A stretch of 64,000 nt of DNA from a virus. Under the pieces are notes generated by a model. That model was not told the DNA's origin. It searched no databases and saw only the letters and a list, made by a program, of their open reading frames with translations. Within the stretch, counting starts at the first letter, position 1, and each line of letters begins with the position of its first letter. A program made the translations under genes and the position numbers. Below are positions 1,502-44,878 of this stretch, in pieces. The stretch is from UHGV virus genome UHGV-0086135, one strand, 5' to 3'.

Positions 1502-4198
1502 ATGAAAGAATTTTATATCTCTATCGAAACAGTCGGAAATAATATTGTTGAGCGTTATATTGATGAAAACGGAAAGGAACGTACCCGTGAAGTAGAATAT
1601 CTTCCGACTATGTTTAGGCATTGTAAGGAAGAGTCAAAATACAAAGACATTTATGGTAAAAATTGCGCTCCTCAAAAATTTCCATCAATGAAAGATGCGC
1701 GAGACTGGATGAAGCGAATGGAAGACATCGGTCTCGAAGCTCTCGGTATGAACGATTTTAAACTCGCTTATATCAGTGATACATATGGTTCAGAAATTGT
1801 TTATGACCGAAAATTTGTTCGTGTGGCTAACTGTGACATTGAGGTTACTGGCGATAAATTTCCTGACCCAATGAAAGCAGAATATGAAATTGATGCTATC
1901 ACTCATTATGATTCAATTGACGATCGTTTTTACGTCTTTGATTTATTGAATTCAATGTACGGTTCAGTATCAAAATGGGATGCAAAGCTAGCTGCTAAGC
2001 TTGACTGTGAAGGTGGTGATGAAGTTCCTCAAGAAATTCTTGACCGAGTAATTTATATGCCATTCGATAATGAGCGTGATATGCTCATGGAATATATTAA
2101 TCTCTGGGAACAGAAACGACCTGCTATTTTTACCGGTTGGAATATTGAGGGATTTGACGTTCCGTATATCATGAATCGCGTTAAAATGGTTCTCGGTGAA
2201 CGCAGTATGAAACGCTTCTCTCCAATCGGTCGAGTAAAATCTAAACTAATTCAAAATATGTACGGTAGCAAAGAAATTTATTCTATTGATGGCGTATCTA
2301 TTCTTGATTATTTAGATTTGTACAAGAAATTCGCATTTACTAATTTGCCATCATTCTCTTTGGAATCAGTTGCTCAACATGAAACCAAAAAAGGTAAATT
2401 GCCGTACGATGGTCCTATTAATAAACTTCGTGAGACTAATCATCAACGATACATTAGTTATAACATCATTGACGTAGAATCAGTTCAAGCAATTGATAAA
2501 ATTCGTGGGTTTATCGATCTAGTTTTAAGTATGTCTTATTACGCTAAAATGCCTTTTTCTGGTGTAATGAGCCCTATTAAAACTTGGGATGCTATTATTT
2601 TTAACTCACTGAAAGGTGAACATAAGGTTATTCCTCAACAAGGTTCGCACGTTAAACAAAGTTTTCCGGGTGCATTTGTATTTGAACCTAAACCAATTGC
2701 TCGTCGATATATTATGAGTTTTGACTTGACGTCTCTGTATCCGAGCATTATTCGTCAGGTTAACATTAGTCCTGAGACTATTCGTGGGCAGTTTAAAGTT
2801 CATCCAATTCATGAATATATTGCAGGAACAGCTCCTAAACCGAGTGATGAATATTCTTGTTCTCCGAATGGATGGATGTATGATAAGCACCAAGAAGGTA
2901 TCATTCCAAAGGAAATCGCTAAAGTATTTTTCCAGCGTAAAGATTGGAAAAAGAAAATGTTCGCTGAAGAAATGAATGCCGAAGCTATTAAAAAGATTAT
3001 TATGAAAGGTGCAGGGACTTGCTCAACTAAACCAGAAGTTGAACGATATGTTAAGTTTAGCGATGATTTCTTAAACGAATTATCGAATTACACCGAATCT
3101 GTTCTTAACAGTCTGATTGAAGAATGTGAAAAAGCTGCTACACTTGCTAACACAAATCAGCTGAACCGTAAAATTCTTATTAACAGTCTTTATGGTGCTC
3201 TTGGTAATATTCATTTCCGTTACTATGATTTGCGAAATGCTACTGCTATCACAATTTTCGGTCAAGTCGGTATTCAGTGGATTGCTCGCAAAATTAATGA
3301 ATATCTAAATAAAGTGTGTGGAACTAATGGTGAAGATTTCATCGCAGCAGGTGATACTGATTCGGTATATGTTTGTGTAGATAAAGTAATTGAAAAAGTA
3401 GGTCTTGACCGCTTTAAAGAACAAAATGATTTAGTTGAATTCATGAATCAGTTTGGTAAGAAAAAGATGGAACCTATGATTGATGTTGCATATCGTGAGT
3501 TATGTGATTATATGAATAACCGCGAGCATCTGATGCATATGGACCGTGAAGCTATTTCTTGCCCTCCGCTTGGTTCAAAGGGTGTTGGTGGATTTTGGAA
3601 AGCGAAAAAACGTTATGCTCTGAACGTTTATGATATGGAAGATAAGCGATTTGCTGAACCACATCTAAAAATCATGGGTATGGAAACTCAGCAGAGTTCA
3701 ACACCAAAAGCAGTACAAGAAGCTCTCGAAGAAAGTATTCGTCGTATTCTTCAGGAAGGCGAAGAGTCTGTCCAAGAATACTACAAGAACTTTGAGAAAG
3801 AATATCGTCAACTTGACTATAAAGTTATTGCTGAAGTAAAAACTGCGAACGATATAGCGAAATATGATGATAAAGGTTGGCCAGGATTTAAATGTCCGTT
3901 CCATATTCGTGGTGTGCTAACTTATCGTCGAGCTGTTAGCGGTTTAGGTGTAGCTCCAATTTTGGATGGAAATAAGGTAATGGTTCTTCCATTACGTGAA
4001 GGAAATCCATTTGGTGACAAGTGCATTGCTTGGCCATCAGGCACAGAACTTCCAAAAGAAATTCGTTCTGATGTACTGTCTTGGATTGACTACTCAACTT
4101 TGTTCCAAAAATCGTTTGTTAAACCGCTTGCGGGCATGTGTGAATCGGCGGGTATGGACTATGAAGAAAAAGCTTCGTTAGACTTCCTGTTTGGCTGA
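1502..4198 (+). CDS. 43: DNA polymerase gp43 (family B, with 3'-5' exonuclease)
   Basis: 898 aa as T4 gp43; exo motif CDIEVTG, polymerase motifs KILINSLYGALG and AGDTDSVY; preceded by the gp43 operator hairpin. Confidence 0.95.
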   Translation: MKEFYISIETVGNNIVERYIDENGKERTREVEYLPTMFRHCKEESKYKDIYGKNCAPQKFPSMKDARDWMKRMEDIGLEALGMNDFKLAYISDTYGSEIVYDRKFVRVANCDIEVTGDKFPDPMKAEYEIDAITHYDSIDDRFYVFDLLNSMYGSVSKWDAKLAAKLDCEGGDEVPQEILDRVIYMPFDNERDMLMEYINLWEQKRPAIFTGWNIEGFDVPYIMNRVKMVLGERSMKRFSPIGRVKSKLIQNMYGSKEIYSIDGVSILDYLDLYKKFAFTNLPSFSLESVAQHETKKGKLPYDGPINKLRETNHQRYISYNIIDVESVQAIDKIRGFIDLVLSMSYYAKMPFSGVMSPIKTWDAIIFNSLKGEHKVIPQQGSHVKQSFPGAFVFEPKPIARRYIMSFDLTSLYPSIIRQVNISPETIRGQFKVHPIHEYIAGTAPKPSDEYSCSPNGWMYDKHQEGIIPKEIAKVFFQRKDWKKKMFAEEMNAEAIKKIIMKGAGTCSTKPEVERYVKFSDDFLNELSNYTESVLNSLIEECEKAATLANTNQLNRKILINSLYGALGNIHFRYYDLRNATAITIFGQVGIQWIARKINEYLNKVCGTNGEDFIAAGDTDSVYVCVDKVIEKVGLDRFKEQNDLVEFMNQFGKKKMEPMIDVAYRELCDYMNNREHLMHMDREAISCPPLGSKGVGGFWKAKKRYALNVYDMEDKRFAEPHLKIMGMETQQSSTPKAVQEALEESIRRILQEGEESVQEYYKNFEKEYRQLDYKVIAEVKTANDIAKYDDKGWPGFKCPFHIRGVLTYRRAVSGLGVAPILDGNKVMVLPLREGNPFGDKCIAWPSGTELPKEIRSDVLSWIDYSTLFQKSFVKPLAGMCESAGMDYEEKASLDFLFG

Positions 4199-38590: not shown

Positions 38591-39247
38591 TTATTTAGCC
38601 CTTCCTAATATTCTGGCCGCCTGAGCACATATTGATTCAAGGCGGTCATTACTTATATGATCATTTCTATACCAGTACATGGTTATTGTTCCAGCATAGA
38701 TATTATCCAAATTAAAATATGGACAACTGTACATGTAATTTATTTCTGGAGTAGGCTTTTTAGTTGGTAAAAAAGCAAATTTTGAGTTTGAATAATAATG
38801 ACGTCCATTTAAATGAACTGCATATTCATCCATAGTTTTATCAACAGGATATCCTCCAAGTGATTTTTCACTTATTGTTGAAGGTAATTTTCCTTCATAT
38901 GCTATAATATCAACAAAATAGTTTAAGTTTTTAGGGCGGAAAGAATACACCGCACTAAAGTCTGCCTCAGATGATATATGAACTATCTGGAGTTGTTCCA
39001 GGGCGACAGATTCAAAGCGTGCATTTCTTTCCTTTTCAATAATTTCACTGTATGTTTCATACTTTGATTGCTTATAGTACTCAAAGAAACTATCTCCCCT
39101 ATACCAAACAATCGCCATTATAAACAAAAGAATTACGACAGCTACCCGGGAAGCAAGAACTTTCCCGGTAGCGTTATCTTTGAACAAGCGATCTAGAACA
39201 CCAAACAGAATACCAGAGGGCGAAAATGATATTCTAGGTGCTGTCAT
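38591..39247 (-). CDS. t: holin T
   Basis: 218 aa; near-identity to recalled T4 holin; AGGAGG SD; convergent with asiA. Confidence 0.9.
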   Translation of the reverse strand: MTAPRISFSPSGILFGVLDRLFKDNATGKVLASRVAVVILLFIMAIVWYRGDSFFEYYKQSKYETYSEIIEKERNARFESVALEQLQIVHISSEADFSAVYSFRPKNLNYFVDIIAYEGKLPSTISEKSLGGYPVDKTMDEYAVHLNGRHYYSNSKFAFLPTKKPTPEINYMYSCPYFNLDNIYAGTITMYWYRNDHISNDRLESICAQAARILGRAK

Positions 39248-39277
39248 AGACCCTCCTTTTAAGGGTATTTATTCAAA

Positions 39278-40060
39278 TTATACTCTTGGACCATATATTG
39301 CTCCAACGTTTTGCCATGTCGGTGTAGACCCTATGACGGCATAACCAGCAGCTCCGCCATCGTATTCATATCCTTGACCACGAATATTACATCTACCTCC
39401 TGCGGAGCCAACTTCACCACCAGACCCGCCGTTGTAGATACCGTTCACAGACCCTGCGCCTGGCGCAGAAATAGTACCAGCAGTTGCTCCTGATTGCATA
39501 TCAATAGATCCGCCCGGTGCGCCAAACGGACGACCGCCGCCACCGCCAAAGGTCAATCTCATTTGTGAAAAAGGAGAATAATACCCGCCGCCACCGCCGC
39601 CACCGCCGCCAGCAATAGCTCCGCCATTATTAATTCTTAGTCTCCCACCAATATCATTTTGAATACAATGACCCCCAGCTGAGCCAGGACTATTGCTACC
39701 GCCATTCCCGCCACGGCCATACATCGTTACACCATGTATGTTCAACTGAACATATTCATTCGGTGTATCTCCGTACATGAAGAATAAAGGAACATCTTTA
39801 GAATATGATACTAAATCTCCAGTGATATTAAACACTATAGGTGCACTACCTGCCTCAAAACATCTATCTCGGAACCATTGACCATTGAAGTTATGGTCTG
39901 CTCCAAGCGTGTGAATAATTTCTCTTGAGCGACCTGCAAATTGACTCATCCAGCAAGGAATACCCAATCTTAATTGACCAGCCGCTTGACTCATCCATCG
40001 TTGTCCTGTTTCATTTACGGATGAACTACCAATCCAACCAGGAACACCAACTACTGCCAT
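39278..40060 (-). CDS. 38: receptor-recognising adhesin gp38 (T2-type, glycine-rich motifs)
   Basis: Poly-Gly blocks [12 protein letters not shown] and [13 protein letters not shown] separating variable segments; ATG at 40060 with GGAG SD (ORF-track TTG start at 40072 rejected). Confidence 0.75.
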
Positions 40061-40092
40061 AATTTTCTCCAAAGGGGCAAAGCCCCTTGTTG

Positions 40093-43041
40093 TTAGAATT
40101 TAAAATAATTACTAATTTTGTGAGCAATTTTAGTGAAGAAGGGTGTTTTCAATTCTTTAATTTCTTCGCTCATTTCCTGAATGGCCTTAATTAAAAGAGC
40201 ATTCACAGCAGAGTTAGAAATTGTTAGAACATCAGATCCATCGACTTCAACTTTAGATACAGCTTCCGGTAATTCTTTTTCAAGATCCTGAGCAATAATA
40301 CCAACTTCATGTTTAATAACACTACGGTCTTTAATAGACTTAACTTTATCGTAAGTATAAACTTTCAGTCGGCAAACTTTTTCAACCGCTCCGTTTTCTA
40401 GCTCTTTTTTATTAATCTTAAGACGACCATCGGAACGAATATACACATCATTAAAACTTCCATTTCCTGGTGCATAAAAGAACCCATCATAGTGGAACTC
40501 GAATATCGCGTTAGGATGACCAGCATCAGGAGAAGCCTCCGCAGATCCAACACGAATAATTGCTTGTCCCCAATTATTAGGGATACGACGAATACCAAGA
40601 TCGACGGCAGTTACATACCCTTGATTGGTGACTACACTTCTTCCTTTAATAATTGGATAATAGCTATCTGATCCAACATAACCATGATCGACGAATATTG
40701 GCGCTTCTACTCGCCATTGGTTGCCCCAATCACCTGGTTGACTAGCGGTCCAACGTTCACCATGAACATATAATCGAACGTTATTAACATGAGCCATTTC
40801 GACGCCTTTTGGACTTAGCGTGATATCCCCTGCGTTTGTAATGTATACACCAGCATTAGTAGCATAACTATAGAACGCTAATCCATTATCATCACCACCC
40901 TTACCAATATACCAGTTACCAGTCCCGTCTACGTCACCACGAATATGCAAAGAATTACTAGCAGGTGCTGATAATACAATAGAATCACCTGGGCTTTGAA
41001 TTGTCAAGCGTCCGGTCATAATATCACCGCCTTTACCCACGCGAGTATTCAAAGCAGCGTCTAAATTGGTTGCATTATTATATTTCTTCCAGATAGAACC
41101 AGCAATATTACCATCGGTATTAAGGAATGCTGCTCCAGCATAAACTCGACTTTGTGACATGAATCGGCCCGACGGCAAGAAACGCCATGTAGCTAATTCA
41201 GTGGCTGTAGTTCCAGTAGCGGATAAATCACCCTGAGCAACGATACGATATTCTGAACTAGCAATATCCATGCCAGAAGCCATAGTAATATTTGTTACAG
41301 TGTTTTTCTGTTTAACAATTGGCGCAAACTGGTTTTTATTTGAATCGTCAATGGCCTGATATAATGGCGCAATGGTAGTATTCTGATTTGCGTAAGTATT
41401 AGAACCAGAACCGCTAGCAGGAGCTTGAATATATGCTCCTGGAGCAAGTGAAATTTTCTGATTAGCGCCAAGATTAACAGCAGCAGTGATATTCAGCAAT
41501 CCTCTAAAGTTTTGTTGAGCAGTCCAAGTATGTGATCCGTCTTCAAGAACAACACGACGAACTGTGCAAGTTCTATTTCCTGAATTACCGAATACACGAA
41601 CGACAAAATAACGGTAGTTTGTCTGGGATACAGTACCACGCCAAACCTGAACAGTACGGCCTGTGCTAGTATGTTCGCTAGGACCGACGGAAAACATAAC
41701 CAAGTTTCCATCAATCGTCCCCCAATTCATATTTGCTGGCATGTTCTTTATTTTGTTCAAAGGAACGCTAAACATACTACCAGGGACAAAATCAAAGGTT
41801 TGCCAATCTAACTCCGCTAATTGAGCTTTAATACCACCCATACCCAAAGTAATTGGCAGAGAATAAGATGTATATACTTCGTTCCATGTACCCCAAACAC
41901 CATTAGTGTATGCACGCTCAAAAATACGTCCGCGAGTAGTTGTACCTGTTCCGGCAGTAGTAAATTTTTGGAAAATAGCACCACCAGAAGCACGCTGTTT
42001 AACTTCTAGCAAACCAATAATAACGGCCGGTAAACCTTCACCTGTAGGGCAGTTAATAACGGCATCAGTGCCTAAAATATTATATAACCCAGGAGTTTTA
42101 AAATCATTCAGGTTTCCATCATAGAAAGTCGCTGGTGTGACATTACCGACTTGTTGCCACGGTCCCCATTTAGGAGCAGTAGCATCCCACGCGGCAGTAA
42201 GACAGCGAGTATAAACAACACCAAACATGGTTGTATATCTTTGCGTACGAGAATAGCTTCCCCCTTCATATACTTCCAAAAGACCTTTAGCTGACGACCC
42301 CTCTTCTGGGAAATTTCTGTCAAAGGTGGCAATGGAATTTGAACTATTCCTCCACAAGCCAAAGTGTTCAGCACCTCCTAGATCATTAAGATCAATTGTT
42401 GTTGACAGTGGACGAGTACCGGATTGAATATTTCGCCACACACTCCACGGACCATTTACTCCGTTCCATGTAGCAGTCAAGGAACGAATATAAACATTTC
42501 CGTATCTGGTTGTATATCTCTGAGTACCAGCAAATTGACCGGCCACAAATACTTCTAGCACACCTACAGCATTTTCTTCTGGAAATTTATTTGCTGGTTG
42601 AGCGTTGGTTGAAGTTGCTTTCGACCAAACTCCAAGATATTCTTCAACAGGCCCATACTCATCTAAATTAGCATCAACCGGTAATTCGCCGTTATTTTTT
42701 ATAAACGTTGTGCTATTGACATTTATGTCAGATGGAGTTAGCGTGATATCTTTTGACCCATCAAAGGATATACCATTAATTTTTCGTGCTGTTTTTAATT
42801 TCGTTGCAGTTGCAGCGTTACCTGTTAAATTTCCAATTATATTTCCATTAACAGTTAAAGAACCATCAATTGTTCCTCCATATTTTAAACCTAATTCTAT
42901 AACACTGCCTGAGTCATCTTTTGTGAAAATTGTTTTATCTTTTAAATTAATAGCCAATTCACCTTCGGCTAATACTGAAGCAGCAGGACGTTGACCTGCA
43001 GTTTTGCTTCTTTTAAATTGTATTTGTTTTAAAGTAGCCAT
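40093..43041 (-). CDS. 37: long tail fibre distal subunit gp37
   Basis: 982 aa between gp36 and gp38. Confidence 0.85.
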
Positions 43042-43723: not shown

Positions 43724-43731
43724 TATTTATA
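43724..43731 (-). promoter_or_regulatory. late promoter (TATAAATA on minus strand) for gene 36
   Basis: Plus-strand TATTTATA 24 nt upstream of gene 36 start. Confidence 0.6.
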
Positions 43732-43762: not shown

Positions 43763-44878
43763 TTAAACTTCTCTAAATTCTTGCCCAAACACTTTGCCAG
43801 TTTTAGAAGAGGCTTGTGTAGGAAGTACCATTATATCTGGAGGTGAAGCCGATTCACAGACATAATTAACGCGAATACCGTTGACGCCAAATTCGGCAGG
43901 TTTTGAAATGCCGCCATTTCTTGATACTTCAGAAAAGCTTAAATTCCTCAGTCCGCCTTGACCAGCTTGAGCAGTTCTCTGCGCATATATAGTAAATCCG
44001 ACTGCATTTTCAGGAACAACTACATAATCTTCCTTTAATTCCCATGACCCAGCTTGCCCAGTAAACTCAGATTGGGTCGAGGAAATATATCCATTTGATT
44101 CATTATAAAAACGGATAGATATATTTGTAGTTCCAAGATCAAGTAAATCAGCATCAGCATATAACTGTGCTTTAAGATAAAGAACATCACCAGGAATTAA
44201 ATTATAATCAGATAGTTTACTTATAGCAGCTGAAGTTGGCAATCGCGCAATTTCGTTATTAGTTCCACCAACCGCTGACATAAATTGCTCGACACTTTCA
44301 TATGTTCTTTTAGGAAATCCCGTAGCTCCGACGTCTTCTAAACTATCAAATACAACATCTAAAATAGTTTGATAATCATCTGTGCTTTTTCTATTACTTA
44401 GTTTAACATGCTCTAATGCAATAGCTCTTTTAGAAGAAGTATAAAAAGCAGCATATGATACGTCAAATCTTGACAATACTGAATCTGATGGAAAAACTGA
44501 AGTTCCTGCTCCCCTTAACCAAGATACCACTTCAGGAGGAAAATTAACCTTTCCGCTAGTTAATATAGCAACAAGCCTATTGTTTGACAAAGAATTCATA
44601 AAACTGACAAAAGCGGCAGATGTTGTATTGTTTGAAGCAGAAAAAGCATATGACTTACTATCAACTAATGCTCCCGTAGAAGGGTCAAAAACTCTTAAAT
44701 GAAGACCTGCACTAAATGTTTGATTTCCAACGGGATTATCCTGAAATTTAACATATGGCCCTGCAGTAGAAAGCGGGCAAGAGCCCGCTATGCTTATTTT
44801 ATATCTTACTGAATTGCTTTCCGATAAAAATGGAGTTTGGACATATCCTTGTCCAAACTCTGCCATAAATTTTTCCAT
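43763..44878 (-). CDS. 35: long tail fibre hinge protein gp35
   Basis: 371 aa (T4 gp35 372 aa); synteny. Confidence 0.8.
   Translation of the reverse strand: MEKFMAEFGQGYVQTPFLSESNSVRYKISIAGSCPLSTAGPYVKFQDNPVGNQTFSAGLHLRVFDPSTGALVDSKSYAFSASNNTTSAAFVSFMNSLSNNRLVAILTSGKVNFPPEVVSWLRGAGTSVFPSDSVLSRFDVSYAAFYTSSKRAIALEHVKLSNRKSTDDYQTILDVVFDSLEDVGATGFPKRTYESVEQFMSAVGGTNNEIARLPTSAAISKLSDYNLIPGDVLYLKAQLYADADLLDLGTTNISIRFYNESNGYISSTQSEFTGQAGSWELKEDYVVVPENAVGFTIYAQRTAQAGQGGLRNLSFSEVSRNGGISKPAEFGVNGIRVNYVCESASPPDIMVLPTQASSKTGKVFGQEFREV

Follow-up and report, generated by a model that had tools for sequence, protein, structure and literature searches.

A T-even adhesin-type gp38 with predicted Tsx specificity and repetitive glycine codons in virus genome UHGV-0086135

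The tail-fibre locus and its signals

The window (the whole stretch of 64,000 nucleotides of UHGV virus genome UHGV-0086135 that was analysed) carries on its minus strand a long-tail-fibre locus in which gene 38 lies directly after gene 37 and before gene t, with gene 37, gene 36, and gene 35 upstream of gene 38. Gene 38 (39278..40060, minus strand; ATG at 40060, stop codon at 39278-39280) encodes a predicted tail-fibre tip adhesin of 260 amino acids (aa). An earlier note on this DNA had placed a gp38 of about 260 aa at 39278-40060, and the open reading frame is indeed one of exactly 260 codons. Gene 37 (40093..43041, minus strand) encodes the 982-aa distal subunit of the long tail fibre, with the Pfam domains Peptidase_S74 (aa 870-928) and gp37_trimer, and its product has a C-terminal intramolecular chaperone of its own. 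Downstream of gene 38 is the holin gene t (38591..39247, minus strand), which matches Pfam Phage_holin_T with an E value of 1.4e-116. The same 37-38-t order is found in T2, T6, RB5, RB32, CM8, and T4.

An exact match to the T4-type late-promoter consensus, TATAAATA, lies just upstream of gene 36 (43724..43731, minus strand) and is a likely candidate for the promoter of a 36-37-38 transcript. A scan for sigma-70 promoters and terminators around gene 38 returned nothing above chance, as expected of a late gene. The 30-nucleotide (nt) spacer between gene 38 and gene t (39248-39277) contains AATAAATA, which matches TATAAATA at 7 of 8 positions, along with AAGGAGG, a strong ribosome-binding site; AATAAATA may serve gene t as a late promoter of its own. 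A short GC-rich hairpin, AAGGGGC-TTT-GCCCCTT (40072-40088, minus strand), also lies after the stop codon of gene 37 and before the Shine-Dalgarno sequence of gene 38; the terminator scan missed it since its T tail is only 3 nt long. Further upstream, the fibre hinge protein gp35 (gene 35, 43763-44878, minus strand) matches Pfam PF15711 (ILEI) at aa 58-112 with an E value of 7.8e-8 and 33.2 bits (cut-off 27); PF15711 is the interleukin-like EMT inducer or FAM3 fold, an unexpected family name on a phage fibre connector.

The mechanical list of open reading frames begins gene 38 at the TTG at 40072, upstream of the ATG at 40060. We place the start at the ATG because a GGAG Shine-Dalgarno sequence is located at 40067-40070, 6 nt ahead of it, and because the aligned gp38 homologues share this N-terminal start, all of them opening with MAV/IVGVPGW. 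In the record of phage PST (KF208315; locus L017, 190-993), the gp38 annotation starts 7 aa further upstream, adding an N-terminal MPPLEKI that is missing from every other homologue; the start codon there was probably called wrongly, much like the TTG at 40072.

Domain layout and glycine content of gp38

All coordinates in this section refer to the minus strand. The N-terminal attachment domain (aa 1-42, 39935..40060) corresponds to Pfam Gp38_N, and its presumed docking role on the gp37 tip is taken from the S16 structure; it is 93-98% identical to T6, RB5, and RB32, and about 63% identical to T2 and JK38. It is followed by a conserved body (aa 43-115, 39716..39934), which by homology to the S16 adhesin structure 6f45 would form a beta-helix region and whose identity is 100% to RB5, 86% to T6, and 36-43% to JK38 and T2.

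In an alignment of ten sequences, the C-terminal half consists of five conserved glycine-rich motifs that alternate with four hypervariable segments. Motif 1 (aa 116-121, RGGNGG, 39698..39715) has invariant G/R columns, its boundaries being approximate, and precedes hypervariable segment 1 (aa 122-150, 39611..39697), which is 100% identical to T6, RB5, and PST and 53-72% identical to T2, JK38, and RB32. Motif 2 (aa 151-159, 39584..39610) is an uninterrupted run of nine glycines (G9) and holds a direct repeat of 14-15 nt, GGCGGTGGCGGCGG(T), in common with motif 3; the segment between these two motifs, hypervariable segment 2 (aa 160-171, 39548..39583), is identical to RB5 and CM8 and shows 0-23% identity to T2 and RB32. 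In motif 3 (aa 172-184, 39509..39547), the GGGGGRPFG columns are invariant and include a run of five glycines (G5, aa 172-176, 39533-39547). Hypervariable segment 3 (aa 185-210, 39431..39508) is 96% identical to RB5, 85% to T6, and 19-27% to RB32 and T2. Motif 4 (aa 211-215, GGSGG, 39416..39430) has a serine at position 213, where relatives with experimentally determined receptors have G or N, and hypervariable segment 4 (aa 216-234, 39359..39415) has a tyrosine at position 231, where every Tsx-verified relative compared has S. The alignment ends with motif 5 and the conserved C-terminus (aa 235-260, beginning GGAAGYAV, 39281..39358). The hypervariable segments drop to about 0-30% identity against T2 and RB32, while the glycine motifs remain invariant, so that the description in the earlier note of poly-glycine blocks separating variable segments is borne out.

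Glycine accounts for 62 of the 260 residues (24%), rising from 12% in aa 1-115 to 33% in aa 116-260; the latter value compares with 5-11% in the neighbouring gp37, gp36, and holin. Besides the G9 and G5 runs there are shorter GGxGG motifs. At the glycine content of gp38 itself, the chance expectation of a G9 run in 260 aa is about 5e-4. The G9 codons are GGC GGC GGT GGC GGC GGT GGC GGC GGG, and both runs are GGC/GGT repeats. The plus-strand string previously given for the longer run, CCGCCGCCACCGCC, was correctly placed at its start (39585), but its end at 39613 lies 3 nt beyond the glycine run, which ends at 39610 and itself begins at 39584.

Family assignment

Two Pfam families cover nearly the whole protein: PF21721 (Gp38_N) at aa 1-42 with 72 bits and an E value of 3.9e-20, and PF05268 (GP38) at aa 47-260 with 240.2 bits and an E value of 3e-71 (cut-off 25 in both cases). 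The S16 gp38 adhesin structure, 6f45, aligns over the full length with an E value of 2.7e-49, and PDB entry 9v85, a gp38-GFP fusion whose gp38 part is 100% identical to that of phage PP01, aligns over aa 38-260 with an E value of 3.6e-80. By these matches, gene 38 is a Tequatrovirus (T-even) gp38 in the adhesin form of T2, T6, K3, Ox2, and S16, in agreement with the reading that had been proposed for it.

The other protein that bears this name is the tail-fibre assembly chaperone of T4, which is not in the virion according to the annotation note in NC_000866. That gp38 here could be such a chaperone, absent from the virion, is suggested by the gene name and the position after gene 37, and by nothing else. 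The alignment with T4 gp38 (183 aa) had been set beforehand as the refuting test of the adhesin reading, and it gave no homology (BLASTP E = 1.9, best segment of 12 residues), which leaves that reading standing. The Pfam families and the solved structures to which the protein does align are those of adhesins, and an S74 intramolecular chaperone is built into the partner gp37. We consider the T4-type chaperone ruled out by the adhesin families, the solved-adhesin matches, and the BLASTP result, and give it next to no probability.

Within the adhesin family, a structural picture is available from S16. According to the summary in PMC12032242, the N-terminal domain of S16 gp38 docks the adhesin on the gp37 tip and is followed by a beta-helix region; the same summary describes a polyglycine-II sandwich of three layers, built by the glycine motifs, with the variable segments emerging from it as loops that touch the receptor. 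Transferred to the locus described here, this would mean that the gp37 trimer folds and then sheds its C-terminal self-chaperone, that aa 1-42 anchor one gp38 molecule to the fibre tip, and that the five glycine-rich motifs pack as a polyglycine-II sandwich. The four hypervariable segments would then jut out as loops and bind a beta-barrel protein of the outer membrane by its extracellular loops. The sequences themselves show which gene this is, how its domains are laid out, its sub-type, its mosaic pattern, and the natural duplications that end in GGN runs. We infer the fold, the fibre-tip position, and the Tsx receptor discussed below, the fold from the full-length homology to 6f45. An AlphaFold2 model of gp38 built from the single sequence had a mean pLDDT of 31.6 and a pTM of 0.22, values too low for it to be of use.

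Sub-type and predicted receptor

The receptor comparison used gp38 proteins with experimentally determined receptors, and RB32, annotated as Ox2/M1-like, stood in for the OmpA class of K3 and Ox2. According to Trojet 2011 (PMC3157838), T6 and RB5 use Tsx, PST uses Tsx and OmpA, RB32 uses OmpA/LPS, and T2 uses FadL; CM8 and JK38 use Tsx according to genome-wide screens in a 2026 preprint (bioRxiv 10.64898/2026.04.02.716166). Over aa 116-260, gp38 is 97.9% identical to RB5, 96.6% to CM8, 94.5% to T6, and 92.4% to PST, and more distantly related to JK38 (77.9%), PP01 (55.4%), RB32 (55.2%), and T2 (49.7%). The label "T2-type" previously given to this protein therefore holds at the level of the family but not of the sub-type, since the receptor-binding half is about 50% identical to T2 against 94-98% to T6 and RB5.

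Over the whole protein only four residues differ from RB5 (I34V, N210S, S213G, and Y231S, from gp38 here to RB5), nine differ from CM8, and 19 differ from T6. The identities of hypervariable segments 1 to 4 are 100, 100, 96, and 95% to RB5 and 100, 92, 85, and 95% to T6; RB5 and CM8 both have exactly the same segments 1 and 2, and one residue separates segment 3 from that of RB5. All four segments thus fall in the T6/RB5 set. One set of four variable segments is common to nearly all Tsx binders (Trojet 2011, PMC3157838), and trees of gp38 built without the N-terminus sort the adhesins by receptor (PMC12032242). On the strength of this T6/RB5 set of segments, we predict from the sequence that the primary receptor is very probably the nucleoside channel Tsx of E. 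coli. The alignment of gp38 homologues that had been suggested as a way to predict the receptor thus points to Tsx, through the similarity to T6 and RB5. For phages with the same receptor-binding allele (UGKSEcP1/2, vB_SsoM_113, LF73P3, and ZCEC15), no published receptor was found in the literature.

The same adhesin could also have a receptor that is shifted or widened, either to Tsx plus OmpA as in PST or to another beta-barrel protein, by way of N210, S213, Y231, and T246. None of the Tsx-verified relatives compared, among them RB5, CM8, T6, and PST, has S213 or the Y231 of hypervariable segment 4, and one to three loop substitutions are known to alter receptor use: Q206L in RB68 switches the receptor from OmpF to OmpW by a single loop substitution (bioRxiv 10.64898/2026.04.02.716166), and three substitutions give PST its additional recognition of OmpA and Yersinia (PMC3157838). 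Moreover, a phage propagated on Yersinia pseudotuberculosis, a species without a Tsx homologue (PMC3157838), has this same allele with a duplication added. Against such a shift stand segments 1 and 2, which are those of the Tsx-dependent RB5 and CM8, and segment 3, which is so close to that of RB5; in the alignment, none of the PST residues tied to OmpA or Yersinia use (R166, I167, and I207 in the numbering of gp38 here) is present, and close gp38 relatives generally have a common receptor. A shifted or widened receptor is in our judgement distinctly improbable, and Tsx remains the predicted primary receptor. If the phage does depend on Tsx, hosts would be expected to become resistant first through loss of tsx, and on the same prediction a phage cocktail should pair this phage with phages that use other receptors.

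Exchange at the glycine codon runs

The idea that GGN runs serve as sites of recombination goes back to Tétart 1996 and 1998, as cited in PMC12032242 and PMC3157838, and is also put forward in Trojet 2011 (PMC3157838). In this scheme, the GGN runs, which are near-repetitive both within the gene and between alleles, would offer short homologies for unequal or homologous exchange, by which loops would be duplicated or swapped. At the level of the whole gene, the identities of the N-terminal and C-terminal halves are uncoupled (93 and 55% for RB32; 47 and 78% for JK38), and the two halves of gene 38 assort independently among relatives.

The gp38 of Shigella phage JK38 (locus L018, 205-990) is a natural chimera, its N-terminal half being T2-like and its hypervariable segments 2 and 3 being T6-like (92 and 81%, respectively).

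Within gene 38, motifs 2 and 3 share two direct repeats: GGCGGTGGCGGCGGT, of 15 nt, with copies 60 nt apart, and GGCGGTGGCGGCGG, of 14 nt, with copies 51 nt apart (at nt 463 and 514 of the gene). The latter spacing is exactly that of a duplication found in nature. Yersinia phage vB_YepM_ZN18 (ZN18; locus L004, 4001-4834) has the allele of gene 38 described here plus a perfect tandem duplication of 51 nt, and its middle glycine motif, GGC GGT GGC GGC GGG, is the hybrid expected from an exchange between motif 3 and motif 2. An independent duplication, of 54 nt and likewise with a hybrid junction, is present in a CM8-like allele in Yersinia phage PYps47T (locus L023, 161-997). What is duplicated in both phages is glycine motif 2 together with hypervariable segment 2, and the window has the matching repeats at 39584-39610 and 39533-39547. 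The duplications of ZN18 and PYps47T are direct natural footprints of exchange within GGN runs. Further duplications were searched for among 50,697 phage records, in which only ZN18 and PYps47T were found, among IMG/VR contigs, which returned only ZN18 itself, and among 241 million metagenome records, which returned none.

In laboratory crosses, none of 14 chimeras had exchanged between motifs 1 and 5, and the whole specificity domain was swapped more often through the conserved flanks (PMC3157838). Because none of these chimeras crossed between motifs 1 and 5, we regard exchange within the GGN runs as possible but not as the dominant route. The earlier note had named the GGN runs as a substrate for recombination; this stands insofar as natural duplications end there, but laboratory crosses more often used the conserved flanks.

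These crosses also bear on a different reading, in which the GGN runs exist only for the polyglycine-II fold and recombination is an occasional by-product that does not shape the evolution of the adhesin. In its favour, the laboratory chimeras crossed over in the flanks, and duplication is rare, with two phages among the records searched. The glycine columns are invariant but the codons behind them are not (against RB5, motif 2 has 100% identity at the amino-acid level and 78% at the nucleotide level), and in-register exact matches in the glycine motifs are at most 12 nt long against the divergent RB32 and T2. This reading accounts less well for two independent natural duplications with their junctions in GGN runs, and for JK38, which has exact matches of 18-25 nt with gene 38 at glycine motifs 1, 2, and 3 despite the 47% identity of its N-terminal half. 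An engineered CM8 x EV240 recombinant, furthermore, swapped only the part from hypervariable segment 2 onwards (bioRxiv 10.64898/2026.04.02.716166). We judge it quite possible, though somewhat short of an even chance, that the runs exist for the fold only. The account that we favour, namely a T-even adhesin gp38 on the fibre tip with Tsx as its receptor and with exchange of loops at GGN runs, is as a whole highly likely.

Duplications in phages of Yersinia

Both carriers of the duplication, ZN18 and PYps47T, were isolated on Y. pseudotuberculosis, and among the 205 records that have a matching adhesin, about 10 are of Yersinia phages; the records are not independent of one another. The coincidence of the duplication with Yersinia is suggestive. 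The duplication of segment 2 arose at least twice independently (51 nt in ZN18 and 54 nt in PYps47T), and the allele of gene 38 described here could be seen as one step of unequal crossover away from a longer adhesin, with the duplication of segment 2 through GGN runs as a recurrent, selectable adaptation of Tsx-type adhesins to Y. pseudotuberculosis, which lacks Tsx. We consider this proposal rather unlikely. PYps47T lysed 52 of 128 Y. pseudotuberculosis strains, and its siblings without the insertion lysed 78-87 of the 128 (PMC8762354). Since the siblings without the insertion lyse more strains, the duplication is not required for infection of Yersinia, and the adaptive reading has a low probability. 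The source paper of PYps47T mentions only an "insertion of 15 aa".

Distribution of the allele

The gp38 allele of the window has already been deposited and is not new. At the DNA level, gene 38 is 99.7% identical to UGKSEcP1/2 and L14, and the 443 nt of receptor-binding DNA are 100% identical to UGKSEcP1/2, 99.8% to vB_SsoM_113 and LF73P3, and 99.5% to L14. The gp38 protein of UGKSEcP2 differs from that described here solely by I34V, and in the receptor-binding part of the protein, identity reaches 99% or more in 17 phage records, for none of which the literature gave a receptor. The search of IMG/VR gave 12 gp38 loci, few of them close, and the phage collection of GenBank is far richer. For the 24-kb stretch around gene 38, the best match is Escherichia phage UGKSEcP1 (97.1%), and many other Tequatrovirus genomes match at 94%; the genome of the window is thus distinct from those of UGKSEcP1/2, vB_SsoM_113, L14, and LF73P3.

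Gene 37, in turn, is a recombinant mosaic when set against UGKSEcP2, vB_SsoM_113, RB5, and T6. At about nt 1000-1600 of the gene (about 42100-42700 of the window), it is 100% identical to vB_SsoM_113 and 74% to UGKSEcP2, and its distal part, nt 2200-3400 (about 40300-41500), matches UGKSEcP2 at 98-100% but vB_SsoM_113 and RB5 at about 52%. UGKSEcP2 and vB_SsoM_113 both match gene 38 at about 100%, so a single gp38 allele accompanies two gp37 ends that share only 50% identity over their last 250 aa.

The gp38 family, its structure, its modular loops, the prediction of receptors from these loops, and the recombination hypothesis have all been published, and nothing in gene 38 changes existing knowledge of gp38. 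A small addition comes from outside the window: the hybrid glycine motifs at the duplication junctions are a natural footprint of GGN runs as exchange points.

Comparison with known gp38 proteins

With T4 gp38, the protein described here has in common only the gene name and the position after gene 37; the T4 protein is a chaperone with a different role and has no detectable homology to it. T2 gp38, which binds FadL, belongs to the same Pfam family and has the same layout of glycine motifs and variable segments at the same locus, but it is about 50% identical in both halves, and its hypervariable segments 2-4 are unrelated (0-32%). S16 and PP01 reportedly use OmpC. The gp38 of S16 (6f45) has conserved glycine motifs in common with gp38 here and displays the polyglycine-II sandwich, but its loops differ; the loops of PP01 gp38 (9v85) also differ, and its receptor-binding half is 55% identical.

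T6 gp38, the prototype Tsx binder, has an identical segment 1, a segment 2 that differs by one residue, and 94.5% identity in the receptor-binding half, and the C-terminal 250 aa of T6 gp37 are 89% identical to those of gp37 here; the stretch encoding aa 43-115 of T6 gp38 has only 74% DNA identity to gene 38 and is a mosaic patch. The Tsx-dependent gp38 proteins of RB5/RB3 and CM8 agree with the one described here in the length of 260 aa, the order of domains, the four hypervariable segments, and the 37-38-t locus. The distal gp37 of RB5 is only about 52% identical in DNA, so the same type of adhesin sits on a different fibre end. UGKSEcP1/2, vB_SsoM_113, L14, and LF73P3 carry essentially the same gp38 allele as the window.
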